Virus record (IMG/VR): IMGVR_UViG_3300021961_000027
DNA length: 64,000 nt
DNA from: an uncultured virus (IMG/VR IMGVR_UViG_3300021961_000027)
Lineage: Duplodnaviria > Heunggongvirae > Uroviricota > Caudoviricetes
Reading direction: 5' to 3' (one strand)
The position numbers and the translations under genes were made by a program. The notes under the pieces were generated by a model that made no database searches, was not told the DNA's origin, and saw nothing but the letters and a program-made list of their open reading frames with translations. Of this stretch, positions 38 to 14,876 are shown piece by piece. Position 1 is the stretch's first letter. Each line of letters starts with the position of its first letter.

Positions 38-268
38 GTGATTTTCAAATATTACGGCGTTGACTGGATTATATTTATTTTAGTTGTAACACAATTATGG
101 CTACTTGGAAACAAAAAGAGACAAGCATTTTTATTCGGCATGGCTGGGAATAGTTGTGGAATTCTTCTTGGTTTCCTTGTTGAGAGCATAGCATGTATAA
201 TTATGAATTCTGTATTTGTGATTATGCATGTAAATGCATATCGGAAGTGGAAGCCTAAAGATGTTTAG
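38..268 (+). CDS. small membrane protein, PnuC/nicotinamide-riboside transporter-like half domain
   Basis: Three hydrophobic segments, D-W near the N-terminus, C-terminal YRKWK as in phage PnuC-like proteins. Confidence 0.5.
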   Translation: MIFKYYGVDWIIFILVVTQLWLLGNKKRQAFLFGMAGNSCGILLGFLVESIACIIMNSVFVIMHVNAYRKWKPKDV

Positions 269-491
269 AAACTATACATGTAGAAGCTCATATTCGGTTT
301 TTAATAGAAACCAAAGATGGGGAGCCGCATTTAGCACCCCAAATGAACATTGCAGCTTAGCTTTTGGCAGTAGGCGCAATAGAGTAAGTAGAAACTTAGG
401 ACAAGCTTGGAGCGAAGTATTTAATGCATGTGAATCAACAGTATGGACTGAATTCTTTTTCCACCAATTAAACACCTCGGAGTGGTGGTAA
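261..491 (+). CDS. Ser/Trp/Arg-rich microprotein (array family)
   Basis: ATG 261 overlaps the upstream stop; MFRNYTCRSS...NTSEWW; TAATG-coupled to next ORF. Confidence 0.65.
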   Translation: MFRNYTCRSSYSVFNRNQRWGAAFSTPNEHCSLAFGSRRNRVSRNLGQAWSEVFNACESTVWTEFFFHQLNTSEWW

Positions 492-673
492 TGAAATTGT
501 TTAATCCAATAGGTTCTTGCTTCGGCAATTTACAGGCTAGTGGCAACCTGTATTGTTTCTTCCACCACTTGATGCCTTATGCATATTTGTGGGGTAGTCG
601 TGCAGCCCGTAGTAGAAATGTTAGATATCAAGATTCAAAACCTTTTGGGTTTTTTCAAGCAGATTGGGTGTAA
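491..673 (+). CDS. Ser/Phe/Trp-rich microprotein (array family)
   Basis: TAATG overlap at 489-493; MKLFNPIGSCFG...FQADWV. Confidence 0.6.
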   Translation: MKLFNPIGSCFGNLQASGNLYCFFHHLMPYAYLWGSRAARSRNVRYQDSKPFGFFQADWV

Positions 674-674
674 A

Positions 675-971
675 ATGGAATACAAATACTGCATAATAAC
701 AAAAGACAACACCATGCGCCTTTTTTACAAAGGCGTAGAAATAGAGCATTTCAGAGCATGGGAAGCACGATATCCAGATTTTCATCATATTACATTCACA
801 GTTGATGGGGATTATGTGGAGTTCCACATTGACAAAGACCAAGTTTCAGAGCAAACTACTGAGGAGTTTTTGGTAGAACAGATTCTCCAAAAAGATGAAG
901 AAATAAAAGAGTTAAAAAAACAAAACAATATTTTAAGAATGATTGTTAATAAGAATCAGACTAATTCATAA
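675..971 (+). CDS. hypothetical protein with C-terminal coiled coil
   Basis: ATG 675 directly after the upstream stop; in frame with ORF 579..971. Confidence 0.65.
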   Translation: MEYKYCIITKDNTMRLFYKGVEIEHFRAWEARYPDFHHITFTVDGDYVEFHIDKDQVSEQTTEEFLVEQILQKDEEIKELKKQNNILRMIVNKNQTNS

Positions 972-980
972 ATATTAATT

Positions 981-1529
981 ATGATAAAAAAATTCTGGAA
1001 GTGGCTAGCAGATAAAGGTTTTGCCAACTGGTTTAAAGGCAGCAAAATTGTAGACGAAAATGGCGAACCAAAAATGGTTTATCATGGCACTCCAATCTCT
1101 AGCAAAATAAACAAATTCAAAATATCAACCGGGGGCACTATATCTTTTTCCTTCAATCCAACTTTTGCAGGATCATTTGGCAGAAAAGGCGGCAGTCAAA
1201 GTAATATTGTTGTGGCATATTTAAAAGTAATAAATCCCTTTGATTATCGTAAGCAAGAGCATAAAGAAATTTTACAAAAGTACTGGCAAAATCTTAAAAT
1301 GCCTTACATTAAAACCATGATGGAAGAACTTAATAAAGGATTATTTGCCGTCATTGCAGATCCAAAATTCTTGAAATCAAATGGATTTGATGGCTGCTAT
1401 ACAACAGAAGGCAACACTCTTAACATTGAAGTTTTAGATCCCAACCAAATATGGATAGTTGACCAAAAAGAATTTGACAGCGCCGAGTGGAAATCAAAAA
1501 TCGGCAACGAAATGCCATTTTATAAATAA
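981..1529 (+). CDS. ADP-ribosyltransferase-like protein (ART-PolyVal type)
   Basis: WFKGSKIVDENGEPKMVYHGT, SF...FA, YLKVINP, GFDG motifs; TAAATA at 969-974. Confidence 0.7.
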   Translation: MIKKFWKWLADKGFANWFKGSKIVDENGEPKMVYHGTPISSKINKFKISTGGTISFSFNPTFAGSFGRKGGSQSNIVVAYLKVINPFDYRKQEHKEILQKYWQNLKMPYIKTMMEELNKGLFAVIADPKFLKSNGFDGCYTTEGNTLNIEVLDPNQIWIVDQKEFDSAEWKSKIGNEMPFYK

Positions 1530-1581
1530 GCATTCGCCCTATAATGAGGGCGGTTAATTTAATTTTTTAAGGAGCTAAGAC

Positions 1582-1740
1582 ATGGATAAGTCGTATGAAG
1601 AGGAAGTTCTAGAATCGATTATTCGTCACATGTATACTCATCGCCATCTATCGAATTTAGGCTACGATAGCATGACCATGCAAATGCAAAATTTATTCAA
1701 CAATATTGTCTGTAAACCAATAGGTGATAGAAATGTCTGA
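1582..1740 (+). CDS. hypothetical protein (52 aa)
   Basis: AAGGAG RBS, open frame MDKSYEEEVLESII..., TATAAT upstream. Confidence 0.65.
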   Translation: MDKSYEEEVLESIIRHMYTHRHLSNLGYDSMTMQMQNLFNNIVCKPIGDRNV

Positions 1741-1888
1741 TTATTGGGATGGCTTCTGGACTGGTATTGCAATTGCTTTTTTTGGATCACAATTATATTT
1801 CTTGTATTTTGATGTATTAGGTTATGGATCTAGGAAGAGCAAAATATGCCATACAAAAGCAGAGTCAGAAGAGAAGAAGCGAGACTAG
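1733..1888 (+). CDS. small membrane protein
   Basis: MSDYWDGFWTGIAIAFFG..., overlaps upstream stop. Confidence 0.55.
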   Translation: MSDYWDGFWTGIAIAFFGSQLYFLYFDVLGYGSRKSKICHTKAESEEKKRD

Positions 1889-2016
1889 CTTGGCGTATTA
1901 AAAACAAAGAAAAGTTAAGAGAGCAAAGGAAAATATGGGAAGCAAATAATCAAGACAAAATTAAACAGTATAGAGAGAAAAGGAAAATAAAAAATGCTCT
2001 TTCTGAACGGTCATGA
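1846..2016 (+). CDS. basic helical protein resembling the N-terminal arm of HNH endonucleases
   Basis: MPYKSRVRREEARLAWRIKNKEKLREQ...NQDKIKQYR resembles the N-terminus of 16173..17135. Confidence 0.5.
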   Translation: MPYKSRVRREEARLAWRIKNKEKLREQRKIWEANNQDKIKQYREKRKIKNALSERS

Positions 2017-2188
2017 CTGTGCCATTTTCAGTTTAATATATTCTGGAAGTCATAATTGGAAAAATAATTGGTGCTTATGTGATACAAGGGCTATAACAGC
2101 AAGAGCAGCCTTGTCTTTTTCACATCATTGGTCTAAAAATATCACTTGCTCTCAGAGGAATGATTCCTTTTTGTGGGGGATAGACTAA
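1994..2188 (+). CDS. Ser/Trp/Cys-rich microprotein (array family)
   Basis: 64 aa, composition like the family, ends SFLWGID. Confidence 0.55.
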   Translation: MLFLNGHDCAIFSLIYSGSHNWKNNWCLCDTRAITARAALSFSHHWSKNITCSQRNDSFLWGID

Positions 2189-2222
2189 AGACTTTGATTG
2201 TGGCATTGTTCTTGGAGCAAAA

Positions 2223-2489
2223 ATGGAATTTTCAAACGAATATTCGAAATTGGTAATTACACCAAGATATGCTTCTAAGGTTGATTGCGTTAATTGCAAC
2301 GGTTCTGGAATTGTCGATAATCCAGATGCAATGGGATTGATGGACAAAAACATGAAATGTTTCTACTGTTGGGGGGATGGCAAAAGAGAAGTTGTGCCAG
2401 AAATTCCAATTCCCCCAGAGATGTGCCACAAGTTTTTGGAAGATTTGGAAAAGTGGTTTGAAAATTATAAGCGGTTGGAGCAAAAGTAA
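2223..2489 (+). CDS. DnaJ-type zinc-finger protein
   Basis: CVNCNGSG and CFYCWGDG (CxxCxGxG) motifs; GGAG RBS. Confidence 0.7.
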   Translation: MEFSNEYSKLVITPRYASKVDCVNCNGSGIVDNPDAMGLMDKNMKCFYCWGDGKREVVPEIPIPPEMCHKFLEDLEKWFENYKRLEQK

Positions 2490-2629
2490 TGATAAATAGT
2501 TTTTGTTGGTCTAGGTCTGGTTCTGGATCTATTTTCGAGTCTAGGCATAAGTCTGGGTCTTGGTTTGGGGATTGGTCTATTTCTCTGCTTCAGATCGGGC
2601 AGAAAATAATTTCTAGGTCTTGGAAATAG
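2489..2629 (+). CDS. Ser-alternating microprotein (array family), 46 aa
   Basis: TAATG-coupled; MINSFCWSRSGSGSIFESRHKSGSWFGDWSIS...SRSWK; TCT-NNN periodicity. Confidence 0.7.
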   Translation: MINSFCWSRSGSGSIFESRHKSGSWFGDWSISLLQIGQKIISRSWK

Positions 2630-2640
2630 GGGATAAACTA

Positions 2641-2829: not shown

Positions 2830-2903
2830 CTATTCAATTAGCCATTCATTTTTCTCAAATTTCGCTGGTTTTCAAGGCAAAAAGCTATTCAAGGAGCTAT
2901 TCA

Positions 2904-3143
2904 ATGAACGGCGAAATCGGTTTGGCAATATTGTTTTTCTTTTATTTGTCTGTGTCCGTAAATTTATGGCTTTTGTGGAACATGTTTACTGGTCACAGGG
3001 AAGTACATCAAAAAGTTGATGGTCAGATATTATATGTCCAAAATCAATTACTACGGAGAATTGATGCATTAGAAGAAAGATTGCATCAATTCACAGAACC
3101 CCAAGAAGGATTAGTGGAAACTGAAAAGGAGAAAGCACAATGA
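2904..3143 (+). CDS. membrane-anchored coiled-coil protein
   Basis: AAGGAG RBS, N-terminal TM helix then coiled coil. Confidence 0.7.
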   Translation: MNGEIGLAILFFFYLSVSVNLWLLWNMFTGHREVHQKVDGQILYVQNQLLRRIDALEERLHQFTEPQEGLVETEKEKAQ

Positions 3144-3310
3144 ATCTCAAACAATGCAGTCGTTCCAGAGTGGGCTGCTGGAATTTTAGCGTTTGGCGGT
3201 CTTCAAATTGGGCTAGAGCTTGGACACACAATTTGGAAGAAAACTATACGCAGTTTGGATGCTTTAGACACGCTTCTACAAGGTCTTTCAACTGGAATAG
3301 GGATATATGA
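3140..3310 (+). CDS. microprotein (array family), 56 aa
   Basis: ATGA overlap; MNLKQCSRSRVGCWNFSVWRSSNW...RSFNWNRDI. Confidence 0.7.
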   Translation: MNLKQCSRSRVGCWNFSVWRSSNWARAWTHNLEENYTQFGCFRHASTRSFNWNRDI

Positions 3311-3498
3311 TCCGCCGAATTCATAGCTGGAACTATTGTGAAACATTTTGGGTAGAGAGTTTCATTGGTTCCAAAATATTCCCATTTAATTTTCCGACAA
3401 GTTGGATTGGAAGGCAAGAGTGGGATTATAGCCAAGTATTCGGATTTATACAGAGTGCTATCAGTAACAGAAGTGAGTGTTGGAAAGGCAAAATTTAA
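3307..3498 (+). CDS. microprotein (array family)
   Basis: ATGA overlap; ends RSECWKGKI. Confidence 0.7.
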   Translation: MIRRIHSWNYCETFWVESFIGSKIFPFNFPTSWIGRQEWDYSQVFGFIQSAISNRSECWKGKI

Positions 3499-3662
3499 TG
3501 TTCATCCCATCGTATAAAACAACAGATTTAGCACATTGCTGGTCGGATAGCAGAGCTAGGTCTTTTTTCCAAAGAAAGTTTTATTCTAGTTCCTTTACAA
3601 GAAATATCTACTATCATGTGGATTATGAGGTTTTCTTTTGGAGCAAAGGGATACGCATATGA
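3498..3662 (+). CDS. microprotein (array family)
   Basis: TAATG overlap; HCWSDSRARS...FFWSKGIRI. Confidence 0.7.
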   Translation: MFIPSYKTTDLAHCWSDSRARSFFQRKFYSSSFTRNIYYHVDYEVFFWSKGIRI

Positions 3663-3862
3663 CTTTTCCCAAACCACAAGCAGTTTTTTATAGAGATTGC
3701 AGTCCTTTTGACTTGCATCGCTATAACATTACAGGATTGTTTGGACTATCTCTTTACGGGCAATATGTTCGCAAAAGCTTTTGGATCAGTATTGCTCATG
3801 GATTGGGTTTTGGCGGTAGGGAACATTGTTTTACTTTCAACAGATTCAATGTGAGGCGGTGA
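3659..3862 (+). CDS. microprotein (array family)
   Basis: ATGA overlap; MTFPKPQ...RFNVRR. Confidence 0.65.
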   Translation: MTFPKPQAVFYRDCSPFDLHRYNITGLFGLSLYGQYVRKSFWISIAHGLGFGGREHCFTFNRFNVRR

Positions 3863-4044
3863 TGACTCCAGTCCCAACCGTTGACCGAATGGACTTGAGA
3901 GTTTTTGGTACATTAGTGCCATTTTCCAGATTTCGATTCAATTGCTTTGTAAGTTATATTAACGGACAAGGAAAATCAAGGCATTGGCATAATCGCTCAA
4001 GAGACTTGCATTTCGTTTCAAGTTGTTGGGGGTTTAAAGGATGA
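3862..4044 (+). CDS. microprotein (array family)
   Basis: TGATG overlap; ends VSSCWGFKG. Confidence 0.7.
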   Translation: MTPVPTVDRMDLRVFGTLVPFSRFRFNCFVSYINGQGKSRHWHNRSRDLHFVSSCWGFKG

Positions 4045-4229
4045 TCCTTAAAACCTCATGTTGCGATACAAGCGGTTGTTTTCATATAAGACTTCCAAAG
4101 TCGTATAATTTTAGCAGCGGTATTGAATCATTTGTTTTTACTTTTCAGTTTATGAAATGTTGCTGCTGGAATAGAAACAAGGCAGGCACATTTTTTCATT
4201 CAACGGCTTTTGGGGAACAAGAATGGTAA
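4041..4229 (+). CDS. microprotein (array family)
   Basis: ATGA overlap; Cys/Ser/Phe-rich, KCCCWNR. Confidence 0.7.
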   Translation: MILKTSCCDTSGCFHIRLPKSYNFSSGIESFVFTFQFMKCCCWNRNKAGTFFHSTAFGEQEW

Positions 4230-4417
4230 TCAACACACTTCATAAAAACCCATCCAGCCTTGTGTGGCATACATTTCTTCCGTATTCAAAATTTTTCATG
4301 TTAGGCTATAGCAGACATTACAGCTTATCCAAAATATGGGGTAAATATCCTATTAGCTCTTCGTTATTATTTTTTTCTAATGACCACCGTAGCAGATGTT
4401 GGAATCATAACATATGA
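4223..4417 (+). CDS. microprotein (array family)
   Basis: ATGGTAA overlap; ends RSRCWNHNI. Confidence 0.7.
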   Translation: MVINTLHKNPSSLVWHTFLPYSKFFMLGYSRHYSLSKIWGKYPISSSLLFFSNDHRSRCWNHNI

Positions 4418-4566
4418 GAACCTTCCGCAAACAAACTGCCCCCAGACATATTTTAATATGGAAGCATTTCAGAAACAATTCTGATATGTTTAGAGGCATT
4501 TCCTACAGTATAACTTTTACAGTTGGATTAGCTTTTTCATTCAATTTTGTTGAGAGAAGGTTCTAA
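4414..4566 (+). CDS. microprotein (array family), 50 aa
   Basis: ATGA overlap; MRTFRKQTAPRHILIWKHFR...VERRF. Confidence 0.65.
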   Translation: MRTFRKQTAPRHILIWKHFRNNSDMFRGISYSITFTVGLAFSFNFVERRF

Positions 4567-4739
4567 TGTTCCGTTTTCCCTCACCTAGCACTATAGAACT
4601 CTGGCGTTTTAGCAATTACAGAAGCAGGAATTGGAGACAGAATAGAACTATATACATACAATGGACGCTTAGAGGTTGGCGAAACGATGCTTTTGAATCA
4701 AGCCAAACTTGCTCTTATAATTTTGAGGGAAGCATATGA
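4566..4739 (+). CDS. microprotein (array family), 57 aa
   Basis: TAATG overlap; MFRFPSPSTIELWRFSNYRSRNW...; ATGA-coupled to 4736. Confidence 0.7.
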   Translation: MFRFPSPSTIELWRFSNYRSRNWRQNRTIYIQWTLRGWRNDAFESSQTCSYNFEGSI

Positions 4740-5113
4740 AAACATTTAAAAAATTTTTGGAAAATAAAGAATTAAATTTGCCAGAATATTTGTATCATGC
4801 AACCTATAAACCTTATTTAGACAGCATAATGAAGCATGGGCTTGGTGGCTATCAACAGAAAAAAAATTATGAAGACTCAGAATCTGGTAAAGTTTATTTA
4901 GCCTTAGACCCTGAAGTAGCTAGAGCTTATGCAGAAACATCAGATGAAGTTCCAGAAGACTGGCTTGATAATATTGTAGTTTTGACTATTGATACCGGAA
5001 AGCTTGATAAAGAACTAATTGGCTCAGACCGAAATGTTCAAGATAATAATGGCGATACACTTGAGTATAAAGGTATTATTTCACCAAATGCAATAATTGG
5101 GAGTAGTATATGA
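4736..5113 (+). CDS. ADP-ribosyltransferase-fold protein (Tpt1/KptA-like)
   Basis: LYHAT...SIMKHGL, VYLA.DPEVA..YA, Y.G.I.P..I; N-terminal MKTFKKFLE. Confidence 0.65.
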   Translation: MKTFKKFLENKELNLPEYLYHATYKPYLDSIMKHGLGGYQQKKNYEDSESGKVYLALDPEVARAYAETSDEVPEDWLDNIVVLTIDTGKLDKELIGSDRNVQDNNGDTLEYKGIISPNAIIGSSI

Positions 5114-5544
5114 AAACATTTAAAAAATTTGTAGAGTATAAAGATAATTTATTTATCGAAGCTAAAAAGATGAATACTGATGAGATAGTCCGTAAAATAA
5201 AATCTCTAAATTTACCTTTCGGTGGAGGTTATTGTGGAAATACAGCGATAGAAATCAATCATAAAGTATTTGGTGGCAAAGGAAAATACATCGTTGCTGT
5301 TAATGAATTTCTTTTTGATTTTGAAAATGAGTTTGTTGGACATGTCGCAGTAAAATACAACAATCAACTATGGGATACAGACGGTCTGATTAGTATGGAT
5401 CATCTGGAATCATGGGGACAAGTCGATCCAACAGATTCAAATTATACAGGATATTTTGGTTGGACAGAACAAGATGCATACAAGGTAAAAATCATGGAAA
5501 TGACTGAAGACCAAATTAGAAAATATTTACCTTGTGATAATTAG
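5110..5544 (+). CDS. putative papain/transglutaminase-fold enzyme
   Basis: GGYC...HVAVKY...WDTDG gives a Cys-His-Asp order; N-terminal MKTFKKFVE. Confidence 0.5.
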   Translation: MKTFKKFVEYKDNLFIEAKKMNTDEIVRKIKSLNLPFGGGYCGNTAIEINHKVFGGKGKYIVAVNEFLFDFENEFVGHVAVKYNNQLWDTDGLISMDHLESWGQVDPTDSNYTGYFGWTEQDAYKVKIMEMTEDQIRKYLPCDN

Positions 5545-5558
5545 CAAGTGAGAGGATT

Positions 5559-5675
5559 ATGAAAACAAAACACAAATTGATTATTGCAGCATTAATTGTG
5601 GCTGGAACTTTAGCTTTCTTGTATTGGAAGTACAGCAACGATTTCTTTTCAGCCTTTTATACAATTGGGATTTAA
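5559..5675 (+). CDS. small membrane protein
   Basis: GAGG RBS, MKTKHKLIIAALIVAGTLAFLYW. Confidence 0.6.
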   Translation: MKTKHKLIIAALIVAGTLAFLYWKYSNDFFSAFYTIGI

Positions 5676-5676
5676 T

Positions 5677-5851: not shown

Positions 5852-6670
5852 CTATTGCTGCTGTGTTAGATTAGGTTGTGGCTGTGCGTTTTGTTGCCCA
5901 GTTGGAACAGCCCAAGATACTCCCTTCAACCTTGGGAAGTGTCCCGCACCTAAAAATAATATACCACCATTAGCTTTAGCAAAATTAATAATTTGAATTT
6001 TTCTTTCTGTTTCTGCGGCATCCCCAAGTTTACTCAATGCATTTCCTTTTTGTTCCCACATATAATCTTCTGCTTGTAGAAGCCACTGTTTAAATTCGGC
6101 AGCTTTATTTTTAATACGAAACTTCTGCTGTTCAAATTGTGGAAATACTTGCCTTACAACATCAAATATTTGTTTTATTTCTGGTTCGCTTAGTTTTATA
6201 TTTACACCAGCCCTTGCGAAAGTGCCAGCACCATTTGCCAATGCACTTCTTAAGGCATCGCCTATCGTATTTGAATTTTTGAAATCTATCTTTGGCGAGT
6301 TTTTAGGCCAATTAGCTGCCACACTAGAAAACGTTGGTACACCAGCGTAAAATCCCGTCATCGTAACTCTATCATCGTAAGAACCGTTGTTTTTTGGGTT
6401 TGCAACACCAAGAACATTTTCACAATATGTTTTTTCAGGGCCATTGCCACCTCCTCTTTCTTCGCCTATGCCTTCATACCAATATCCATATTTTTCACAG
6501 ATATTTTTGGCATATTGTTTTGCCATGTCATCTGGTGGAGGTGTAATTTTTGTACTGCCAGCTTCTGCTCCATGTGCAGAAGGGATTATAACAGCATTGC
6601 CGACATAAGCAAAACCGTTTCCGGCTTGCTCAAAAAGATGCAACCACTCTTTAAAACTTATAGTTAACAT
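5852..6670 (-). CDS. hypothetical protein, possible TraB/GumN-like C-terminus
   Basis: 272 aa; ILFLGAGHF; N-terminal SFKEWL; TAAATA upstream. Confidence 0.6.
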   Translation of the reverse strand: MLTISFKEWLHLFEQAGNGFAYVGNAVIIPSAHGAEAGSTKITPPPDDMAKQYAKNICEKYGYWYEGIGEERGGGNGPEKTYCENVLGVANPKNNGSYDDRVTMTGFYAGVPTFSSVAANWPKNSPKIDFKNSNTIGDALRSALANGAGTFARAGVNIKLSEPEIKQIFDVVRQVFPQFEQQKFRIKNKAAEFKQWLLQAEDYMWEQKGNALSKLGDAAETERKIQIINFAKANGGILFLGAGHFPRLKGVSWAVPTGQQNAQPQPNLTQQQ

Positions 6671-6715: not shown

Positions 6716-6895
6716 ATGCACATTTTCAATTTCCACAAATATGTCCTGAGTGACTTGAATGACTATCATTTTTCTGGTAATTTTGGCGACGAAGCATACA
6801 GCAATAGTTTCATCACAGTTTTAAATCCATTCTCAAGACCAACAGCGAGCAGGGTTTTTGGGCAAGAAGCAAACTCAATTATTGCGGTGTCTTGA
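6716..6895 (+). CDS. microprotein (array family), 59 aa
   Basis: MHIFNFHKY...SRVFGQEANSIIAVS; TGATG-coupled to next. Confidence 0.6.
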   Translation: MHIFNFHKYVLSDLNDYHFSGNFGDEAYSNSFITVLNPFSRPTASRVFGQEANSIIAVS

Positions 6896-7074
6896 TGCGA
6901 TTAAACATGCCTTTCCAAAAAAGCAGAGCATACCTTTTTTCTAGAAATGAGCAAATATCTTTCCACAATGCTCGTTGGGCTAGCAATCTGACTATTAATT
7001 TGGCTAGATCAGAATGTTTTTTTACTGGTAGTCAATCATCTTGGGGACACAGTGCAATTTTTGTGAGGTGGTGA
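6895..7074 (+). CDS. microprotein (array family)
   Basis: TGATG overlap; RSECFFTGSQSSWGHS. Confidence 0.65.
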   Translation: MRLNMPFQKSRAYLFSRNEQISFHNARWASNLTINLARSECFFTGSQSSWGHSAIFVRW

Positions 7075-7075: not shown

Positions 7076-7222
7076 ATGGAAAATCGCATCAAAGCTTTCA
7101 GTCACTGGTGTGGCATCAGTAGTTTCATAAGAATGTATCCTAAATCGTGTTTTATAACTATTACATACTACTCAGGGGCATTTGGACAAGACAAGATTAA
7201 AAGTGAAATTTGGGGCGATTAA
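7076..7222 (+). CDS. microprotein (array family), 48 aa
   Basis: GAGGTG RBS; MENRIKAFSHWCGISS...KSEIWGD. Confidence 0.65.
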   Translation: MENRIKAFSHWCGISSFIRMYPKSCFITITYYSGAFGQDKIKSEIWGD

Positions 7223-7401
7223 TGAAAATATTTGATTTAACAGCTAAGCAAAAAATATTCGGTTCTGATTATAATTATTCTTTTCAATTTCAAAGAGAAA
7301 AATACAGATCTTCTGAGTTTGATTTTTTTGAATCTAGATTAAGAAAAGTTTATGCCAGATTGATCTTGAAAAATGCTTTTGGACCAGAAAAAAGATCTTG
7401 A
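7222..7401 (+). CDS. microprotein (probable array family)
   Basis: TAATG overlap; Phe/Ser/Arg-rich. Confidence 0.6.
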   Translation: MKIFDLTAKQKIFGSDYNYSFQFQREKYRSSEFDFFESRLRKVYARLILKNAFGPEKRS

Positions 7402-7425
7402 CAATCTCGTAGACTCTGATAAACT
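7398..7425 (+). promoter_or_regulatory. sigma70-type promoter
   Basis: TTGACA-N16-TAAACT. Confidence 0.6.
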
Positions 7426-7430: not shown

Positions 7431-7532
7431 CGTCGGTTTGTCCTAGTGGACAGATTGGCGATAGGATTCCGGGGGAAGCCTATCCGAGCAAACAAGAACC
7501 CCTTCCAGTGTTTGGTTGGGGTTCTTGTGTTT
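7431..7532 (+). ncRNA. candidate structured leader or small RNA (three hairpins)
   Basis: CGTCGGTTTGTCC/GGACAGATTGGCG, GATAGG/CCTATC and ACAAGAACCCC/GGGGTTCTTGT stems directly after the promoter. Confidence 0.45.
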
Positions 7533-7549
7533 AAAGAAAAGGATTTCTC

Positions 7550-8328: not shown

Positions 8329-8631
8329 ATGACAATATTTCTATATGTTTTATCTGTAATAAATATTTTATTTTCTATTATAAGTGCTATACCGTGCTTA
8401 ATGGCAGGAGGAATGAGCATGGACAGTCCTCAAGCACAAAAAGATCCAATTGCCATATTTTTGTGTTTGACAATTCTTACATTCCCAGTTGTTTGTTTTT
8501 TGTGTGGCATATCCTTGCCAATACTTGCTCATTTCAAGCAATATACATGGGGAATGATTTTAGGAGCTTGGCCAACTATTGAGGCTATTGCTGTGATTTT
8601 ATTTATGCTAATGATTGATACAGGGAGGTAG
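8329..8631 (+). CDS. membrane protein (3 TM)
   Basis: GAGG RBS, hydrophobic helices, MSMDSP motif. Confidence 0.7.
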   Translation: MTIFLYVLSVINILFSIISAIPCLMAGGMSMDSPQAQKDPIAIFLCLTILTFPVVCFLCGISLPILAHFKQYTWGMILGAWPTIEAIAVILFMLMIDTGR

Positions 8632-8638
8632 TCAACTT

Positions 8639-8836
8639 ATGAGTTCAATAATATTCAAAAACACAAGCTGGTCATCAATATATCTTTTCAATTTAGGATT
8701 TATGTATAGTTATGCTCACATAGGCGATATGGATTATTCTTTTAATTGGAAGAATCATTGGCAAACTTCAAATCAGCGTATTACAGTATTTTCTTTAAAT
8801 GAAAGCAGGGGCCGTTGCTGGGGGAAAAATGTTTGA
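8639..8836 (+). CDS. microprotein (array family)
   Basis: GGAGG RBS; ends RGRCWGKNV. Confidence 0.7.
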   Translation: MSSIIFKNTSWSSIYLFNLGFMYSYAHIGDMDYSFNWKNHWQTSNQRITVFSLNESRGRCWGKNV

Positions 8837-8981
8837 ATATGATCACAAATCATATTGGCTTGCTTACGAAATGTCAAGTACTTTTAGGATAGGATTCTAC
8901 ACAAGTAATAATTTGCGATGTTTTTGGAGCATTTCCTTTGGAAGGTTTAGTTCAAACTGGAGAAATAAGTTTGATTCATAA
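8829..8981 (+). CDS. microprotein (array family)
   Basis: 8-nt overlap; RCFWSISFGRFSSNWRNKFDS. Confidence 0.65.
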   Translation: MFEYDHKSYWLAYEMSSTFRIGFYTSNNLRCFWSISFGRFSSNWRNKFDS

Positions 8982-9147
8982 AATTAATTGCAGATGTACT
9001 AACCCCTGCCGTTCATCATGGATGAGTGGCAGGGGTGCAAGCCCATTGTTTGTTGGGCAAAGATATTTTGCTCCTCTTTTCCACATTCATGTCTATTGGT
9101 GTAGTAGCTTCTGTGGAAGTCAGGGTAGCAATTATCACAAATTTTAA
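8971..9147 (+). CDS. microprotein (array family)
   Basis: TTG start after GGAG; CRCTNPCRSSW...YWCSSFCGS. Confidence 0.55.
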   Translation: MIHKINCRCTNPCRSSWMSGRGASPLFVGQRYFAPLFHIHVYWCSSFCGSQGSNYHKF

Positions 9148-9787: not shown

Positions 9788-9991
9788 TTGAATCTGCAGG
9801 TGGCCAGCGCATCCGTAAATTTAATCTTCGGCAGAAGTACAGAAAGTTATCAATTTTTGAATTCTTATTGCTGTTGTGAAAGTTTCTTTTTTCATAGAAT
9901 CGGGAGTTTACCATTTAAAAGTTCATATGCCTACAACCATGCGTGGATATCAAACTATATTTGGTCAAGCAATTGGGAGAATCACGGATGA
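9788..9991 (+). CDS. microprotein (array family)
   Basis: AGGAGG RBS + TTG; promoter TTGCAA-N16-TAAAAT at 9735-9762; ends WSSNWENHG. Confidence 0.7.
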   Translation: MNLQVASASVNLIFGRSTESYQFLNSYCCCESFFFHRIGSLPFKSSYAYNHAWISNYIWSSNWENHG

Positions 9992-10254
9992 AAAGAATGT
10001 TTGTTTTTAATTTCTGGGATTCTGTTTTATTTCACTTCCCTTTTTGGGATGAATCTCAAAGTTGCCTGTTTTTAAATGATATAACACATTCTTTTTTTGG
10101 AAAAGATGTTGAAGATAAAAATCATATAAATGAGTCTAAACCCAATACTCATAGTAGTATTTTTGATGGTAATTCATCTGAATTTGAATCAATTGATTTG
10201 TCTTCAAATTTTAATTCTGATTCAGAGTCCCGCACAAATTCTGACTGTTTCTAA
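9988..10254 (+). CDS. Ser/Phe/Asp-rich small protein (array-related)
   Basis: ATGA overlap; Ser-alternating C-terminus NSDSESRTNSDCF. Confidence 0.6.
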   Translation: MKRMFVFNFWDSVLFHFPFWDESQSCLFLNDITHSFFGKDVEDKNHINESKPNTHSSIFDGNSSEFESIDLSSNFNSDSESRTNSDCF

Positions 10255-10276
10255 AATTATTTTTTTTTCAACAAAT

Positions 10277-10369: not shown

Positions 10370-10684
10370 ATGGCTAAGAAAGTTAAAAATGATCTGGTTG
10401 ATTTGAGCGTTGCCAAGGGCGAAGAACTGTCTGAAATCTTGCAAGCCTATATTGGACAACCTCTGGCGATTTTATGCGCCAGATTCAATTATAGAGGCAT
10501 CTTGAGCAAGGTTGGCAACAGCTTTGTAGTCTTGGCGCAAGCTAGGGCTGTAGAAAGCAGCGGTGCGTCAAGTCAAGAAAGACCAAGTAACGAGGATCCG
10601 ATTGGATCTTCTGTTATCATCTCTACAAATGCTATCGAATTGATATATCAGCCTAATTGGTGCTTTGCGCCTTTGGAAGACTAA
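10370..10684 (+). CDS. Sm/LSm-like (Hfq-fold) protein
   Basis: AGGAG RBS; L..YIGQPLAILC..FNYRGIL..V....VVL..A (Sm1-like) and SVIISTNAIELI (Sm2-like). Confidence 0.6.
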   Translation: MAKKVKNDLVDLSVAKGEELSEILQAYIGQPLAILCARFNYRGILSKVGNSFVVLAQARAVESSGASSQERPSNEDPIGSSVIISTNAIELIYQPNWCFAPLED

Positions 10685-10703
10685 TATATCATAAAGCTTT
10701 TCG

Positions 10704-10738
10704 AAAAGGCCTCTGCAATTTTGCAGGGGCCTTTTTTT
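10704..10738 (+). terminator. intrinsic terminator
   Basis: AAAAGGCCTCTGCAA/TTGCAGGGGCCTTTT hairpin plus T tract. Confidence 0.8.
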
Positions 10739-10790
10739 ATTGAATCAAATTACTAATTTGATATAATGAGAGCCCAAAAGGAGAATTGAC

Positions 10791-10955
10791 ATGAATATTT
10801 TTACGATCACAATGTTTTTCATTTTTGCAGTAGGAATTTCATCTGCTTTATTTTTCATCAGAGAAGTTTATAAGTTAGTCAAAAGAGAAGAAGAAGTAGC
10901 TGCTAGATTACGAGAGATGTCAGATAATTTAGAAAAGAAATTACACACCTCATGA
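10791..10955 (+). CDS. small membrane protein with coiled coil
   Basis: AAGGAG RBS, TTGAAT-N16-TATAAT promoter upstream. Confidence 0.65.
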   Translation: MNIFTITMFFIFAVGISSALFFIREVYKLVKREEEVAARLREMSDNLEKKLHTS

Positions 10956-11134
10956 AAAGAATTCACCAAAGTCTTTGGAATGAAACTAGTTTAGCGTCTA
11001 CCATGACGAGTTCTAGAAACTTTACCAAAATATTAAAAAAGTCATTGTTATTTACTCATCAAGTATATTTGACCTATAGTTTTAATGAGAGAGCTGATTC
11101 ACAACATTGGTACAACAAGTTGTTTTTCAAATGA
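10952..11134 (+). CDS. microprotein (array family)
   Basis: ATGA overlap; Ser/Thr-rich, SQHWYNK. Confidence 0.55.
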   Translation: MKRIHQSLWNETSLASTMTSSRNFTKILKKSLLFTHQVYLTYSFNERADSQHWYNKLFFK

Positions 11135-11229
11135 AACTGATTCGAAAAACAAATAAAGTAAAAAAATCACATTTATTTTCTGCCGGAATGTATTCGAGTA
11201 TTTGGAAAAAGTTTCCTAACAAAGTAAAA

Positions 11230-11754: not shown

Positions 11755-11766
11755 AAACGACTCCTT

Positions 11767-12045: not shown

Positions 12046-12099
12046 GATGCCTTGCTCCGTGTGTCACCTTTATTTTAGGCTTGGAGCAGCAAATAATCT

Positions 12100-12819
12100 T
12101 TATTCTGGCTCCATTAAATTTGGAGCTTGTCCAGATGTTTGGGATGGGTGGAATAGGAAGCCTTGGCCTAAAGGCGCTTTTACTTTTGGGTCGCTCGGGG
12201 AATAAGATCCATCAGCAACTCTTTCAGCACCGCCTAATTTATACAAAGCGGGTTTAACAAATGCATGGAAAATAATCCATCCAATTAATGGAGATATTCC
12301 CAACAAATCTCTCGCTCCCACAGGAGACATTGCTATAACAGGACCAACCCAAAAAATAATAATTTGAACCATGCCAGAACCAGTTACAGAATCTCTCAAC
12401 AATACTAATGCAGCATTGAGCAAATCTATAAGTGCTATAAAAAAGTATTTTATTATAGCCCATACAGCCTTCATAAAAGGAGAGTTTAAAGCAGTTTTAA
12501 TTTTATCAAAAAAACCTTCTTTTAAAACCTTTATATTATCAAAAAAGTTAAATCCTTCCAATAAACTAAGAGGATAATTTTCTTTTGAGTATGGTTCTGT
12601 TTTTGTTTTCAAATCTTGTAGAATTTGATTTGCTCTCTGCCCAACATTTTTTGGAATATTTCTAGGATTTATTACTGATTTTGCTTTATTTATGGCGTTG
12701 GATATTTGACCTTTTAAAGAATCTAAAATTCCTTTTTCCTCTGGCTTTATTTGCTCAGAAAGAATTTCAAGTTCTTGGTATAAATGTGACTCATATATAA
12801 AAAGACGTAATCCGTTCAT
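12100..12819 (-). CDS. membrane protein, putative late gene
   Basis: TM segments, EGFFDKIK motif, TAAATA 4 nt upstream of ATG. Confidence 0.65.
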   Translation of the reverse strand: MNGLRLFIYESHLYQELEILSEQIKPEEKGILDSLKGQISNAINKAKSVINPRNIPKNVGQRANQILQDLKTKTEPYSKENYPLSLLEGFNFFDNIKVLKEGFFDKIKTALNSPFMKAVWAIIKYFFIALIDLLNAALVLLRDSVTGSGMVQIIIFWVGPVIAMSPVGARDLLGISPLIGWIIFHAFVKPALYKLGGAERVADGSYSPSDPKVKAPLGQGFLFHPSQTSGQAPNLMEPE

Positions 12820-12860
12820 ACTTTATTTATTTGTCAACACTAAATAAATCTGGAGGGAAT

Positions 12861-12974
12861 ATGGAAAACAATAAAGAAAATAAGAAATTCATGACATTCA
12901 AGGAATATGTCATGAATAAGAAAAAACCAACAAAAACACCGATGGGCAAAGATAAACCTGTCATGAAAGAGTGA
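12861..12974 (+). CDS. small protein with MTFKEY motif
   Basis: TAAATA at 12841, GGAGG RBS; MENNKENKKFMTFKEYV. Confidence 0.55.
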   Translation: MENNKENKKFMTFKEYVMNKKKPTKTPMGKDKPVMKE

Positions 12975-12997
12975 GGGAAAATGTAATTTACCGTTGG

Positions 12998-13354
12998 TCA
13001 ACGGTCAAAACTTACTTTACCCATCTTTACGGTTCCCTTAATATTTGTATCGTCTAATCCTTGTGCTCTTGCAGCAGCTTTGATTGCTTGTATTTCAGCA
13101 TCAGATCTGAGCATTCTTTTGCCAAGAGCAGACTTATATTTGGGTTCATTCGCATTCTTTTGAATGAACTCTTGAACTGCTTGATTATAATCAAATCCAG
13201 AAGAAGGCATATTTTTTTGTGCCATCTTTGATGCTGCTCCGCCTACTCCTAGTGCTGCTGCTGCCCCTAGTGCAGAACCAATAGCCCAATTTTTCCATCC
13301 TTCAACTGTTAGTTCTGGATGTTTTTCTAAAACAAATTCAGAAAATAATTTCAT
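12998..13354 (-). CDS. hypothetical protein, putative virion-internal
   Basis: MKLFSEFVLE...EGWKNWAIGSALGAAAALG. Confidence 0.7.
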   Translation of the reverse strand: MKLFSEFVLEKHPELTVEGWKNWAIGSALGAAAALGVGGAASKMAQKNMPSSGFDYNQAVQEFIQKNANEPKYKSALGKRMLRSDAEIQAIKAAARAQGLDDTNIKGTVKMGKVSFDR

Positions 13355-13614
13355 TAGCGCATCTCCGCAGTTAACCAGTTAAAAACTTCTTCCACATCGT
13401 CTTTTGAAGTTGCTATGTGATCATTAGCCCAATCGTGCCCATTTCTAAGCATCTCATCAACTTTCATAGGGCACATAGACAACATTGCGTCTACTCTATC
13501 TTTAATTGTGCGTAAATTGTTAAAAAACATGTAATGTTGAATACCATCACACTCTTGGTATTGTTGCTCATTTATAACGCCAGCAAGAAGCAAGGTTTTT
13601 TTATCTAATTTCAT
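13354..13614 (-). CDS. conserved-looking phage protein
   Basis: LLLAGVINE; YMFFNNL...GHDWANDHIATSKDDVEEVF. Confidence 0.7.
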   Translation of the reverse strand: MKLDKKTLLLAGVINEQQYQECDGIQHYMFFNNLRTIKDRVDAMLSMCPMKVDEMLRNGHDWANDHIATSKDDVEEVFNWLTAEMR

Positions 13615-13686
13615 GGAATACTCCAATTTGAACTAATTTATATATTCAAAAAATTTTGAATTCTATTATCTTAAAGCGGAGGATTT

Positions 13687-13824
13687 ATGGAAAATAATGA
13701 TGACAAAAAAATGTTTTTACAAGATATCAGTGCATTTTGCATCGGAGCTATCCCTGTAATTGCTATAGTTTGGTCTCTTACTGCAAGAATTGTATTTTAT
13801 ATTTTGAGAGGTATGTGGGAATAG
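13687..13824 (+). CDS. small membrane protein
   Basis: GGAGG RBS, single TM. Confidence 0.55.
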   Translation: MENNDDKKMFLQDISAFCIGAIPVIAIVWSLTARIVFYILRGMWE

Positions 13825-13880
13825 AAGTATTATACTAAATTTTTATATTTGTATTGTAAATACTGTATAGTAGGTGCAAT

Positions 13881-14546
13881 ATGATATTAAATTTTAAACA
13901 GTTTTTTATTGAATCATTTCGAGATGATGAAAGATTTAGAGATAGACCAGAAACTCAAAACCAAGATTATAACAAAAGAATTGCTGCAGGTCTAAAAGCT
14001 GAAAAGAAAATTATTAAAGAGCTTATGAAATGCCCAGGATTGAAAAGCAAAGGATTTACTGTAGAAGAAAGTGCTCCCGGAGTTGACATAAGCGAAGGAA
14101 TTGATGCTTGGCTAATAAAAGACGGAAATCGTGTCGGAGTACAAGTAAAGCACAGAGAGTCTAGCGGAGATGACATAGCTTTAGAAATGATTAGAAGTTT
14201 AGATTTAAAAACAGGCAAAACATTAGTCGTTGGCAGAGATAACAAAGAAGCAGCAAGAGGCGCTAAATATTTTGCTGTAGCAAACAGATCAAAAACCATT
14301 GTTGAAATAGTAAGTGCAGATGATGCTAGAGATTATGCAAATCAAGTACTTAGAGAAGCTTTAAGAGATAGAGACTTCATGACTCCATCTGCTAGAGGAT
14401 CTAAAACTTATAGATCTCACTTTGAAGGACATCGAGTTGAGATTAAAATGACAACAGATAGAGACATGGTGACACCAAAAATTATGGCATATATTCCTTT
14501 AGATTTGTGTCAAACCTTTACAAGTTGCCCCTTGAACATTCGCTAG
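13881..14546 (+). CDS. PD-(D/E)XK nuclease-like protein
   Basis: G..AE, D...GIDAW, VQVKHR; N-terminal LNFKQFFIE. Confidence 0.6.
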   Translation: MILNFKQFFIESFRDDERFRDRPETQNQDYNKRIAAGLKAEKKIIKELMKCPGLKSKGFTVEESAPGVDISEGIDAWLIKDGNRVGVQVKHRESSGDDIALEMIRSLDLKTGKTLVVGRDNKEAARGAKYFAVANRSKTIVEIVSADDARDYANQVLREALRDRDFMTPSARGSKTYRSHFEGHRVEIKMTTDRDMVTPKIMAYIPLDLCQTFTSCPLNIR

Positions 14547-14591
14547 TTTTTTCAAAAATTCCCTCTACAATGGACAGACAGGAGGGATAAA

Positions 14592-14876
14592 ATGATTTTT
14601 ATAAATTCAACTGGCATTGGTTCTTGGCACTTTCAAGACAAAAGACACAGTTGGCTTATATCTGTTATAAATCAAATTCATAGAAGAACTTTAGAGCAAA
14701 GTGAAGAATTACTAGCATCTACTAATTCAACAAATTTTAAATTAGCAGGGGGCGGAACAAGCGACCACTTCAACAACAATTTAAGAGTTGCATCATTTTG
14801 GTCATTTGATTGTAATAACGAAAATCAAAAATGCTTCTCTGATCATTGGGGGTCTTCATGGAATGTAAAGAATTAA
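14592..14876 (+). CDS. Ser/Trp/Asn-rich small protein (array family, own transcription unit)
   Basis: TAGTTT-N16-TACAAT promoter at 14544-14571, GGAGG RBS, ends WGSSWNVKN. Confidence 0.7.
   Translation: MIFINSTGIGSWHFQDKRHSWLISVINQIHRRTLEQSEELLASTNSTNFKLAGGGTSDHFNNNLRVASFWSFDCNNENQKCFSDHWGSSWNVKN

Follow-up and report, generated by a model that had tools for sequence, protein, structure and literature searches.

At least 18 of 25 short open reading frames (ORFs) in the window, that is, the whole stretch of 64,000 nucleotides analysed here, appear from comparison with related phages to be genuine protein-coding genes. The contig of this large, uncultivated phage measures 133.8 kb. Taken as a whole, the observations are best explained by a hyperplastic accessory-gene region made of genuine, coupled microprotein genes, a reading that we consider reasonably probable.

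Organization of the arrays

All 25 ORFs were recovered where the original prediction had placed them, on the + strand throughout. The related phage loci L004 and L022 served as comparison genomes and provided ortholog DNA for 18 of the 25; the ORFs starting at 2489, 4041, 8799, 9788, 9943, 10952 and 14592 lie outside this comparison.

234–491, +, microprotein ORF, 85 aa, alternative ATG at 261; ortholog L004 6724–6981, open in both; pS 0.87, pN 0.24; 8 members in ≥90% cluster
482–673, +, microprotein ORF, ATG 491, 60 aa; ortholog L004 6963–7163; pS 0.60, pN 0.34; 10 cluster members
1994–2188, +, microprotein ORF, 64 aa, the best conserved; L004 8666–8863; pS 0.62, pN 0.048; relatives in 3 clusters
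2489–2629, +, microprotein ORF, 46 aa, S-x-S tract on GGTCTN repeats; 11 members in ≥90% cluster
2641–2829, +, microprotein ORF, 62 aa; ortholog L004 8863–9051; pS 0.75, pN 0.25
3140–3310, +, microprotein ORF, 56 aa, AAGGAG 10 nt upstream of ATG; ortholog L004 9834–10004; pS 0.63, pN 0.35; 5 cluster members
3307–3498, +, microprotein ORF, 63 aa; ortholog L004 10001–10192, 89% aa identity; pS 0.75, pN 0.08
3498–3662, +, microprotein ORF, 54 aa; ortholog L004 10192–10362; pS 0.32, pN 0.07
3659–3862, +, microprotein ORF, 67 aa; ortholog L004 11204–11407; pS 0.40, pN 0.06
3862–4044, +, microprotein ORF, 60 aa; ortholog L004 12557–12739; pS 0.61, pN 0.26; 5 cluster members
4041–4229, +, candidate microprotein ORF, 62 aa; singleton cluster; unit absent from L004
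4223–4417, +, microprotein ORF, 64 aa; partial ortholog L004 12718–12903; pS 0.61, pN 0.31
4414–4566, +, microprotein ORF, 50 aa; ortholog L004 12900–13052; pS 0.24, pN 0.05
4566–4739, +, microprotein ORF, 57 aa; ortholog L004 13052–13225; pS 0.64, pN 0.21; +1 frame acquires a stop in the relative
6716–6895, +, microprotein ORF, 59 aa; ortholog L004 17716–17901; pS 0.73, pN 0.14
6892–7074, +, microprotein ORF, ATG 6895; ortholog L004 17898–18077; pS 0.59, pN 0.40, the weakest constraint of the set
7076–7222, +, microprotein ORF, 48 aa; ortholog L004 18077–18223; pS 0.49, pN 0.08
7210–7401, +, microprotein ORF, ATG 7222, 59 aa, less extreme composition; partial ortholog L004 18390–18566; pS 0.58, pN 0.26; 3 cluster members
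8615–8836, +, microprotein ORF, ATG 8639, 65 aa; ortholog L022 1331–1519; pS 0.82, pN 0.22; 24/45 mismatches at codon position 3; 43%-identical homolog in L008
8799–8981, +, candidate ORF, 60 aa; no ortholog found, and absent from the protein collection with the starts tried
8938–9147, +, microprotein ORF, 69 aa, TTG start; ortholog L022 1498–1695; pS 0.77, pN 0.18 (56 codons)
9788–9991, +, candidate ORF, 67 aa, G peak at codon position 2 as in others; none found in the relative search
9943–10254, +, candidate ORF, ATG 9988, 88 aa, acidic tail and ordinary G-at-position-1 pattern; 14 members in ≥90% cluster, up to 56 contigs
10952–11134, +, candidate ORF, 60 aa; none found in the relative search, and absent from the protein collection
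14592–14876, +, candidate ORF, 94 aa; singleton cluster, 3 contigs; none found in the relative search

The ORFs tile their blocks beyond chance. The + strand of block 3140–4739 holds 15 stop-free runs of at least 45 codons versus 6.4 in dinucleotide shuffles and has a coverage of 1.00 versus 0.59, values reached in 0 of 300 shuffles; the - strand resembles the shuffles. Because block limits were set at ORF ends, coverage is favoured in small blocks. The proposed joining by overlaps held at 10/10 junctions from 3140 to 4736, where the overlap is 1–7 nt (ATGA, TAATG, TGATG, ATGGTAA). Each ORF contains, in its final five or six codons, the Shine-Dalgarno sequence (GGGGG, GGAGG, GAGG) for the ORF that follows, and many microproteins therefore have a tail of Cys-Trp-Gly or Trp-Gly type. 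From this observed geometry, in which each ORF ends 1–7 nt inside the following start codon, we infer that the chains would be translated by termination-reinitiation.

Coding status

The microprotein ORFs are very probably real coding genes under purifying selection. In 18/18 pairs the same frame is open in the ortholog, and over their 1077 codons the differences at codon positions 1, 2 and 3 number 229, 221 and 447. Pooled pS is 0.620 and pN 0.198 (Fisher p 6.5e-89), compared with 0.693 and 0.244 in seven ordinary neighbours. Several pairs are weakly constrained, e.g. ORFs 6892 (pN 0.40, pS 0.59) and 482 (pN 0.34, pS 0.60). The suggestion of a rapidly diversifying repertoire, if taken to mean fast or positive evolution of the sequences, was thus not borne out, as the pooled pN/pS of 0.32 compares with 0.35 in the ordinary neighbours.

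In the ungapped alignment of ORF 1994 with its L004 counterpart, 23 of the 31 mismatches fall at codon position 3. Synonymous to non-synonymous codon changes over 1991–2188 are 22:6 in the candidate frame but 2:26 and 1:24 in the other two, and over 8648–8799, likewise ungapped, 16:17 as against 2:32 and 4:30. Furthermore, W (0.90), C (0.81), F (0.81) and S (0.80) are better conserved than residues overall (0.69), and the signature residues of the microproteins thus appear to be under selection themselves. Same-frame orthologs, pN/pS, codon use and conservation of W, C, F and S together point to real, translationally coupled microprotein genes.

Shadow ORFs were at first suspected, given the peak of G at codon position 2, and were ruled out for 18 ORFs by the comparison with L004 and L022. 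It is extremely improbable that the ORFs are not genes in this frame at all, but shadows of +1-frame genes, pseudogenes in decay, genes recoded at stop codons, structured non-coding RNA or arrays of tRNAs. It is the third position of the candidate frames that takes the substitutions, whereas in the other frames the changes are radical and stops arise in the relative; all three stop codons terminate ordinary genes; and tRNAs and Rfam matches are both zero. Such a reading would draw on the G peak in about 19/25 ORFs, which would make G the first codon base of the +1 frame, on weak codon-usage scores in all six frames, on some segments that fold with z down to -3.4, and on +1 frames that read like hydrophobic proteins. 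This last feature is explained by the base pattern of the real frame, with its G-rich second and T-rich third positions.

Another alternative is that the ORFs are relays or spacers that keep ribosomes moving on a long polycistronic transcript, delivering them to downstream ordinary genes and shielding the RNA from Rho and nucleases, the peptides being harmless by-products. The tight stop/start overlaps with the next Shine-Dalgarno sequence inside each ORF, the ordinary genes between and after the units, the random-like or out-of-frame-like composition, the low AF2 confidence, the absence of Atlas matches and the high turnover of units would all fit. However, pN is a third of pS, as in ordinary neighbours, W, C, F and S are preferentially retained, and the four Cys and three His of ORF 1994 are invariant in the alignment down to 78% identity. 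In addition, a distant relative of ORF 3307 (P0058), which shares 41% identity and is just as unusual in composition, retains the N-terminal half. The need for an open frame alone would not produce these features. We regard the relay explanation as unlikely, and favour genuine microprotein genes.

Composition and origin

Composition was compared between 1584 microprotein residues and 10432 residues from 29 long genes. The enrichment originally noticed held for W (4.19x), S (1.96x), F (1.87x), H (1.72x), R (1.70x) and C (1.69x) but not for N (1.09x), and the depletion stood as well for K (0.52x), E (0.54x) and L (0.65x); D (0.53x) and V (0.56x) are likewise depleted. The combined share of W, C, R, S, F and H is 0.33–0.52 in 25/25 ORFs versus 0.12–0.30 in 18/18 small ordinary genes. 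A composition classifier flagged 16/44 small ORFs in window positions 1–16 kb and 0/28 in 16–64 kb, and gave 1–2 matches in each of two unrelated phage loci as well.

The microproteins are mostly basic and 45–95 aa long. As expected from the prediction of little alignable sequence, all-against-all blastp of stop-to-stop segments gave no pair among the ORFs. The proposed Ser-alternating tracts showed no excess (25 S-x-S observed versus 26.5 +/- 4.5 in shuffled peptides), a real tract being present only in ORF 2489–2629. Hydrophobic autocorrelation has a z of -4.1 at lag 3, compared with +2.9 at lag 4 in ordinary small proteins; the microproteins lack the hydrophobic periodicity of helices. Known proteins offer no likeness: the microproteins matched no Pfam or PHROG family, the ESM Atlas (recognition about 1190) gave zero matches, and AF2 modelling of ORF 1994 from a 5-sequence alignment reached a pLDDT of 44.5.

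Their composition lies at a distance of 0.214 from real proteins but of only 0.158 from the -1 shadow frame of ordinary genes, yet for 18 ORFs substitutions and frame conservation speak against shadow ORFs. The microprotein genes match the long genes in their choice of synonymous codons and in base use at four-fold third positions. De novo and overprinted viral proteins (PMC6195259, PMC3744397) likewise depart in composition from the other proteins of the proteome; for overlapping genes PMC6195259 reports enrichment of Arg and Ser, and the composition found here similarly resembles an alternative frame. Differences are that the microprotein genes overlap no second coding frame today, that their synonymous codon use is that of the genome, and that Trp, Phe, Cys and His, all of low degeneracy, are enriched, whereas low-degeneracy residues are depleted according to PMC6195259. 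The odd composition probably stems from birth in repeat or out-of-frame-like sequence, followed by fixation through selection.

Gain and loss of units

The expected variation of the repertoire between strains was evident from a mosaic map against L004, in which whole units are gained or lost. The ordinary genes concerned are the following.

2223–2489, +, ordinary small gene, variable insert; weak DnaJ-type CXXCXGXG match (Pfam E 2e-4, below the curated cut-off)
2904–3143, +, ordinary 79-aa gene, cassette inserted at a junction; missing from P0002 and P0005, which read through without interruption
4736–5544, +, pair of ordinary paralogs (125 and 144 aa) with common 5' ends (repeat D1), variable insert

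The first of these, zinc-finger-like, lies within microprotein block 1994–2829. Both 2223–2489 and 2489–2629 are missing from L004, as is 4736–5544, where the ortholog of 4566–4739 adjoins that of 5559–5675. ORFs 2641 and 3140 are fused in frame in some relatives (P0002, P0005), and the corresponding 235-nt indel (2905–3139) is bounded on both sides by CAATGAA. By eye, gene 2904–3143 (12 cluster members) has a hydrophobic N-terminus and a Glu/Leu-rich C-terminal half. L004 carries an inserted gene (10553–11125) bounded by an 81-nt direct repeat. The region thus appears hyperplastic, with ordinary genes coming and going exactly at ORF junctions, and the set evolves by gain and loss of such genes and of whole units.

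Related phages also show tandem duplication, and their TGGTCT tracts encoding (Trp-Ser)n grow and shrink. A family of 14 ORFs was found in L004, L007, L008, L012 and L016 (0 shuffled decoys at E <= 1e-2). Tandem paralogs with (Ser-Trp)n tracts made of TGGTCT repeats occur in related phages, and L008 has six tandem paralogs at 16072–17247. ORF 2489–2629 matched an L008 (Ser-Trp)n paralog (phmmer E 1.9e-4), a match lost in a stricter run, and most window ORFs could not be tied to the family.

The closest known counterpart is the hyperplastic regions of T4-type phages with their PeSL cassettes (PMC2839356, PMC4122927), in which strain-variable small genes of unassigned function are grouped between conserved genes and whole genes are inserted, deleted or replaced at short conserved junction sequences. 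The strain-variable small genes and whole-gene turnover at short junctions are alike here. The junctions differ in being overlapping stop and start codons with a Shine-Dalgarno sequence, so that there is no room for a promoter-terminator cassette, and the common backbone itself consists of microprotein genes of extreme composition.

The Sm-like gene

An Sm-like gene lies among the arrays.

10370–10684, +, predicted Sm-fold gene, 104 aa (AF2 and Foldseek)

The predicted fold was supported by an AF2 model from 30 sequences (pLDDT 85.1) with one N-terminal helix followed by five strands, as in archaeal SmAP and eukaryotic Lsm proteins (PDB 1i81, 1m8v, 4f7u). Foldseek against PDB returned 40 matches at E <= 0.001, all Sm/LSm among the matches listed, with TM-scores of 0.6–0.8 normalised to the target. 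The protein differs in a 13-residue Ser/Gly-rich insert between strands 3 and 4 and in matching no Pfam LSM family; Pfam and PHROG searches gave no match. With 180 homolog clusters at E <= 0.001 (56–92% identical among the 120 listed), it appears to be a widely conserved core gene. The promoter and terminator ascribed to it did not materialize: among the sites listed by a simple scan, no promoter-like one lies just upstream of 10370 and no terminator-like one after 10684. In total, promoter-like sites are as frequent as chance would give (66 versus 62.9) and terminator-like sites not clearly more so (13 versus 8.6 +/- 3.1).

The suggested link to the arrays fared no better. In the 145-kb record of a relative, the Sm-like gene lies at 31.2–31.4 kb on the - strand, about 30 kb from the orthologous arrays, which occupy the + strand between about 60.9 and 75.5 kb. 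The idea of the microproteins as ring partners, docking on an Sm-like oligomer in the form of beta strands, is therefore very improbable, despite the predicted Sm fold and a location on the same strand at most 10 kb away in the window. At each of 16 loci around Sm-like homologs the classifier flags 1–7 small ORFs, most of them same-strand and downstream, but it also scores 1–2 in the two unrelated loci, and the 180 Sm-like clusters contrast with very few for the microproteins.

Proposed role

Prochlorosins are a multi-copy library of RiPP precursors, with many divergent small Cys/Ser-rich peptides in one genome. The microproteins, many of them small and rich in Cys, Ser and Trp, are alike in this respect, but lack a conserved leader of useful length and have no maturase in the window. 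A comparable library of precursor or substrate peptides, modified by one enzyme or serving as acceptors of the ADP-ribosyltransferase encoded nearby (ART-PolyVal gene, 981–1529), is improbable. Part of the set shares a Met-Ile-Leu-Lys-type N-terminus; however, it spans only about six residues, also begins an ordinary 190-aa gene in L004 and looks like a nucleotide-level start region. Radical-SAM, LanM/LanC and YcaO matches number 0 among 82 window proteins searched against Pfam (35 + 47), and the ART gene is absent from a relative that retains the microproteins.

Under the favoured explanation of genuine coupled genes, the products would be mostly basic Trp/Phe/Ser/Cys/Arg-rich peptides of 45–95 aa belonging to no known family. 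These microproteins resemble wrong-frame translations, yet a related phage appears to conserve them as real proteins. The anti-defence or decoy role first suggested is a guess, and an effector role is tentative; our best guess is that they are strain-variable early accessory effectors, dispensable to the phage, which may bind host targets in take-over or counter-defence.

Coding status of the microprotein ORFs

The 25 microprotein ORFs are present at the positions originally predicted, and in the largest block, 3140-4739, their density exceeds chance: 15 stretches of 45 codons or more lack a stop on the + strand, where dinucleotide shuffles give 6.4 (0 of 300 reached 15), and the - strand is no different from shuffled sequence. 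All ten junctions between 3140 and 4736 are overlaps of 1-7 nt. The unusual composition that had been described holds for W (4.19x), S (1.96x), F (1.87x), H (1.72x), R (1.70x) and C (1.69x), but not for N (1.09x), and K, D, E and V are found at about 0.5x. The summed share of W, C, R, S, F and H is 0.33-0.52 in every one of the 25 ORFs, compared to 0.12-0.30 in all 18 small ordinary genes.

Several properties of these ORFs are not those expected of genes. Within codons, G is most frequent at the second position and T at the first, as in a -1 shadow of ordinary genes. Codon-usage scores are low in every frame, the +1 frames resemble hydrophobic proteins, and the ORF products are closer in amino-acid composition to -1 shadow translations (distance 0.158) than to real proteins (0.214). 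The first expectation was therefore that the ORFs were shadows, decayed genes or RNA, and a shadow, alternative-frame or pseudogene origin was our early working idea. The protein-like +1 frame is explained by the real frame, whose second positions are rich in G and third positions in T and fall on +1 positions 1 and 2. A parsimony frame test on protein variants seemed to support the shadow reading. It fails to discriminate, since the +1-synonymous share was no different for a real control gene (4/14 vs 6/13).

The shadow, alternative-frame and pseudogene reading was ruled out by substitution analysis against a related phage. This phage was reached through near-identical ORFs on other contigs, found by exact look-ups, and a subsequent viral-contig scan with one variant. 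It is represented by locus L004, by L003, identical to L004 across 15,374 nt, and by L022 from the same 145-kb record; pieces shared with the window have 65-94% DNA identity. In the ungapped stretch 1991-2188, 23 of 31 mismatches fall on position 3, and the ratio of synonymous to non-synonymous changes is 22:6 in the ORF frame against 2:26 and 1:24 in the others. In 8648-8799, also ungapped, position 3 takes 24 of 45 mismatches, with ratios of 16:17 against 2:32 and 4:30. The non-candidate frames acquire stops in the relative.

The frame conservation on which the original prediction depended was borne out by 18 orthologous pairs (1077 codons), every one of which is open in both phages; ORFs 2489, 4041, 8799, 9788, 9943, 10952 and 14592 were left out of this comparison. 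Differences by codon position are 229/221/447, giving a pS of 0.620 and a pN of 0.198, compared to 0.693 and 0.244 for seven ordinary neighbours (593 codons). The third-position excess occurs in the candidate frame alone, with no sign of the two selected frames of an overprinted gene pair. Synonymous codon choice is that of the long genes, and the signature residues are the most conserved (W 0.90, C 0.81, F 0.81 and S 0.80, against 0.69 overall). Comparison of the two phages shows that the microprotein ORFs are under selection equal in strength to that on ordinary genes. The main rival explanation, that translation alone matters and the peptides do not, has to be weighed against these values.

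Other non-coding or recoded origins were also rejected. The window contains no tRNAs and no Rfam matches at gathering score, reading through any one stop type does not open a frame (ordinary genes end in TAA/TGA/TAG, 28/11/11), and folding z-scores in block C are mostly between -2 and +1, with a minimum of -3.4.

Ordinary genes and architecture of the arrays

The window is a portion of a 133,793-bp metagenomic contig from a large phage-like genome with a G+C content of about 33%. The following ordinary genes were annotated:

38-268, PnuC-type nicotinamide riboside/NMN transporter, C-terminal part (Pfam, just under the curated cut-off)
981-1529, ART-PolyVal ADP-ribosyltransferase (Pfam)
4736-5113, gene with a weak PHROG match to RNA 2'-phosphotransferase (E 0.0018)
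48291-49199, - strand, sigma-70-like factor, distant from the arrays
49174-49584, - strand, GGACT/AIG2-like cyclotransferase, distant from the arrays
59540-60463, - strand, Amidoligase_2 enzyme, distant from the arrays

Pfam also identified an RNase T-type exonuclease, a DEAD/ResIII helicase, an IMPDH/GMP-reductase-family gene, ClpX-like and RuvB-like ATPases and several glycosyltransferases. The first three genes listed possibly represent an NAD-related theme.

When the window was mapped against L004, a mosaic emerged in which the microprotein units are the backbone common to both phages and the ordinary genes are variable inserts. The relative lacks window 670-1580, which includes the ART gene, as well as 2189-2628, 4048-4247 and 4756-5557. 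At unit boundaries it has additional stretches, each 0.74-1.14 kb long, that encode ordinary genes and more microprotein ORFs. Among cluster members, units are fused or absent. On contigs without gene 2904-3143, the called protein runs directly from ORF 2641 into ORF 3140. The corresponding 235-nt presence/absence difference (window 2902-3144) has a 7-nt direct repeat, CAATGAA, at both ends, and each copy includes an ATGA stop/start overlap, which suggests microhomology-mediated gain or loss of cassettes. In L004 an inserted ordinary gene of 190 aa lies between the two copies of an 81-nt direct repeat (10476-10556 and 11127-11207, 89% identical), whose sequence is that of a microprotein ORF's 3' end. 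The ends of the ORFs also have features in common: the recurrent Cys-Trp-Gly or Trp-Gly tails arise because the final codons of an ORF hold the Shine-Dalgarno sequence of the next, and the starts share a loose motif, ATGATNYTNAAR.

As in hyperplastic regions, variable small genes lie between conserved blocks, and whole genes are inserted or deleted between close relatives. The closest described situation is that of T4-type hyperplastic regions with PeSL-mediated shuffling (PMC2839356, PMC4122927). Unlike the promoter-terminator cassettes of those regions, the junctions here are overlapping stop and start codons of 1-7 nt; no cassettes of promoter plus stem-loop were found at them, and promoter-like sites number 66 against 62.9 expected.

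Two further observations concern L002, a phage contig. The 272-aa protein encoded by 5852-6670 (- strand) corresponds to the C-terminal part of a 631-aa protein at L002 2509-4404 (73% identity over 252 residues). Window 7432-7535 (+ strand) is a three-hairpin RNA-like element (MFE -54.6 kcal/mol, z -5.73 vs 200 shuffles), which occurs once in the window. L002, a contig that is otherwise non-collinear, has a counterpart at 4404-4506 (reverse strand) with about 85% identity; the loops differ and the stems are preserved. A promoter-like TTGACA-16-TAAACT, with TG preceding the second hexamer, lies just upstream and ends at 7425. Rfam gave no credible match to the element, and a search of viral contigs for exact 18-mer matches found none.

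Relatives of the microproteins

The ORFs share little alignable sequence, as had been noted, and no paralogy was found among them. Repeats were searched for within the window region and none were found. The Ser-alternating tracts of the original prediction did not stand out, S-x-S being no commoner than in shuffled peptides (25 vs 26.5), and the motif [SGN][WFY][SGN] occurs at chance level once composition is allowed for. A Pfam search of 106 stop-to-stop segments in six frames gave matches for five of them, all under the curated cut-off (E 0.009-0.03), and none of the 25 ORFs matched a PHROG at E <= 0.01.

Identical or near-identical ORFs are found on many public contigs, single variants on up to 56. 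ORF 3307 has a relative of equally odd composition at 41% identity (protein P0058). Its HMMER matches to long repeat proteins (8 of 10) were taken as spurious; the one inspected, P0057, matches via Trp/Ser-rich repeats. DNA and protein searches of the phage collection and a search of genome_contigs gave no relatives, metagenome_contigs gave only the non-collinear L002, and viral_contigs searched with four ordinary proteins gave just one weak, unrelated locus, L001.

A composition classifier flagged 16 of 44 small ORFs at 1-16 kb of the window against 0 of 28 at 16-64 kb, 1-7 small ORFs per locus in 16 viral loci around homologs of the Sm-like gene, and 2 of 13 and 1 of 4 in two unrelated loci. 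An iterated profile search assembled a family of 14 ORFs from five loci, with no shuffled decoys at E <= 1e-2. An N-terminal profile recovered these 14 and one additional ORF, in two identical loci (E 2.4e-3); past them its matches are intermingled with decoys, which make up 16 of 60. The window is linked to the family through ORF 2489 alone, and weakly. In P0018, a 135-aa protein from a short contig, ORF 2489 and the zinc-finger-like gene preceding it (window 2223-2629) are called as a single fused protein; comparison of the proteins suggests that a 1-nt change close to the stop may be responsible.

Phage locus L008 (16072-17247) carries six tandem paralogs of the family with long (Ser-Trp), (Ser-Arg) and (Ser-Met) runs. 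These are made of TGGTCT-like hexamers in variable number, and the Ser codon is TCT throughout, an indication of recent slippage. Every unit is open in the +1 frame, (Gly-Leu)n, too; when the 5' parts of two paralogs were compared by eye, five codons differed, of which two are synonymous changes in the ORF frame and none in +1. A search of 5.8 billion proteins with one (Ser-Trp)n ORF of L008 returned 39 candidates, none at E <= 0.001.

The Sm-like gene

The Sm fold proposed for the 104-aa product of 10370-10684 (+ strand) is supported by the AF2 model (pLDDT 85.1), in which a helix (20-27) and five strands (31-36, 39-48, 52-61, 81-85 and 89-93) are predicted, matching the N-terminal helix and strongly bent five-stranded sheet of Sm/LSm proteins. 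In Foldseek against the PDB, the matches listed were all Sm/LSm (best E 1.7e-4). No Pfam family, LSM, Hfq and related profiles included, matched at E <= 0.01, nor did any PHROG, and phmmer against PDB sequences gave only an unrelated methyltransferase (E 0.39). The gene has 180 homolog clusters. The promoter and terminator attributed to it were not recovered by a simple scan, which lists neither a promoter-like site directly 5' of the gene nor a terminator-like site behind it. A link to the microproteins had been suggested from proximity. In the relative, the gene is on the - strand at 31.2-31.4 kb, some 30 kb from the orthologous arrays, which span about 60.9 to 75.5 kb of the + strand. The proximity seen in the window is therefore not conserved, and the suggested link is not supported.

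Structure, origin and possible role

The AF2 model of ORF 1994 has a pLDDT of 44.5, from an alignment of five sequences, and a search of the ESM Atlas gave no usable match. In the microproteins, hydrophobic residues avoid a spacing of 3 (z -4.1), whereas ordinary small proteins have a helical signal at spacing 4 (z +2.9). Aromatic residues shun adjacency (35 neighbouring pairs vs 52). In ORF 1994, four Cys and three His are invariant down to 78% identity, consistent with a possible zinc site. No peptide-modifying enzyme or maturase family was detected among the 82 window proteins scanned by Pfam, and neither the conserved leader nor the maturase of a RiPP precursor library was found in the window.

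Overprinted viral proteins are enriched in Arg and Ser according to one study (PMC6195259), and the composition found here recalls de novo or overprinted viral proteins. Unlike those, the microprotein genes overlap no second coding frame, and low-degeneracy residues are enriched.

We favour the interpretation, drawn from genomic context, that the microprotein genes are small accessory genes which vary from strain to strain, located in a hyperplastic region. By the same token, the most likely role of their products would be that of early effectors. A more far-reaching speculation, which we put forward tentatively and regard as rather doubtful as a whole, is that dozens of proteins kept by this phage lineage were born de novo, that selection fixed their Trp/Phe/Ser/Cys alphabet, and that they form a distinct non-helical class of exchangeable early effectors. 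They would have originated from TGGTCT-type hexanucleotide expansions and out-of-frame-like sequence, with fixation by selection afterwards, and recombination at the stop/start junctions would shuffle the effector set. ORF 1994 might then bind zinc, or the class might self-associate via evenly spaced aromatics.

A word search of the open-access literature found no description of Trp/Ser-rich phage microprotein arrays, which does not prove that none exists. These ORFs look doubtful to gene finders, to language models and to structure predictors alike, whereas comparative evidence shows selection of ordinary strength. The arrays offer a clean natural case for asking how far functional proteins can stray from the usual composition, whether new genes in phage hyperplastic regions originate from repeats or alternative frames, and how translational coupling affects protein ends. 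Since the ORFs recur on many public contigs, population-level tests are feasible. Should the products prove to be effectors aimed at the host, they would constitute an untouched pool of small binders.
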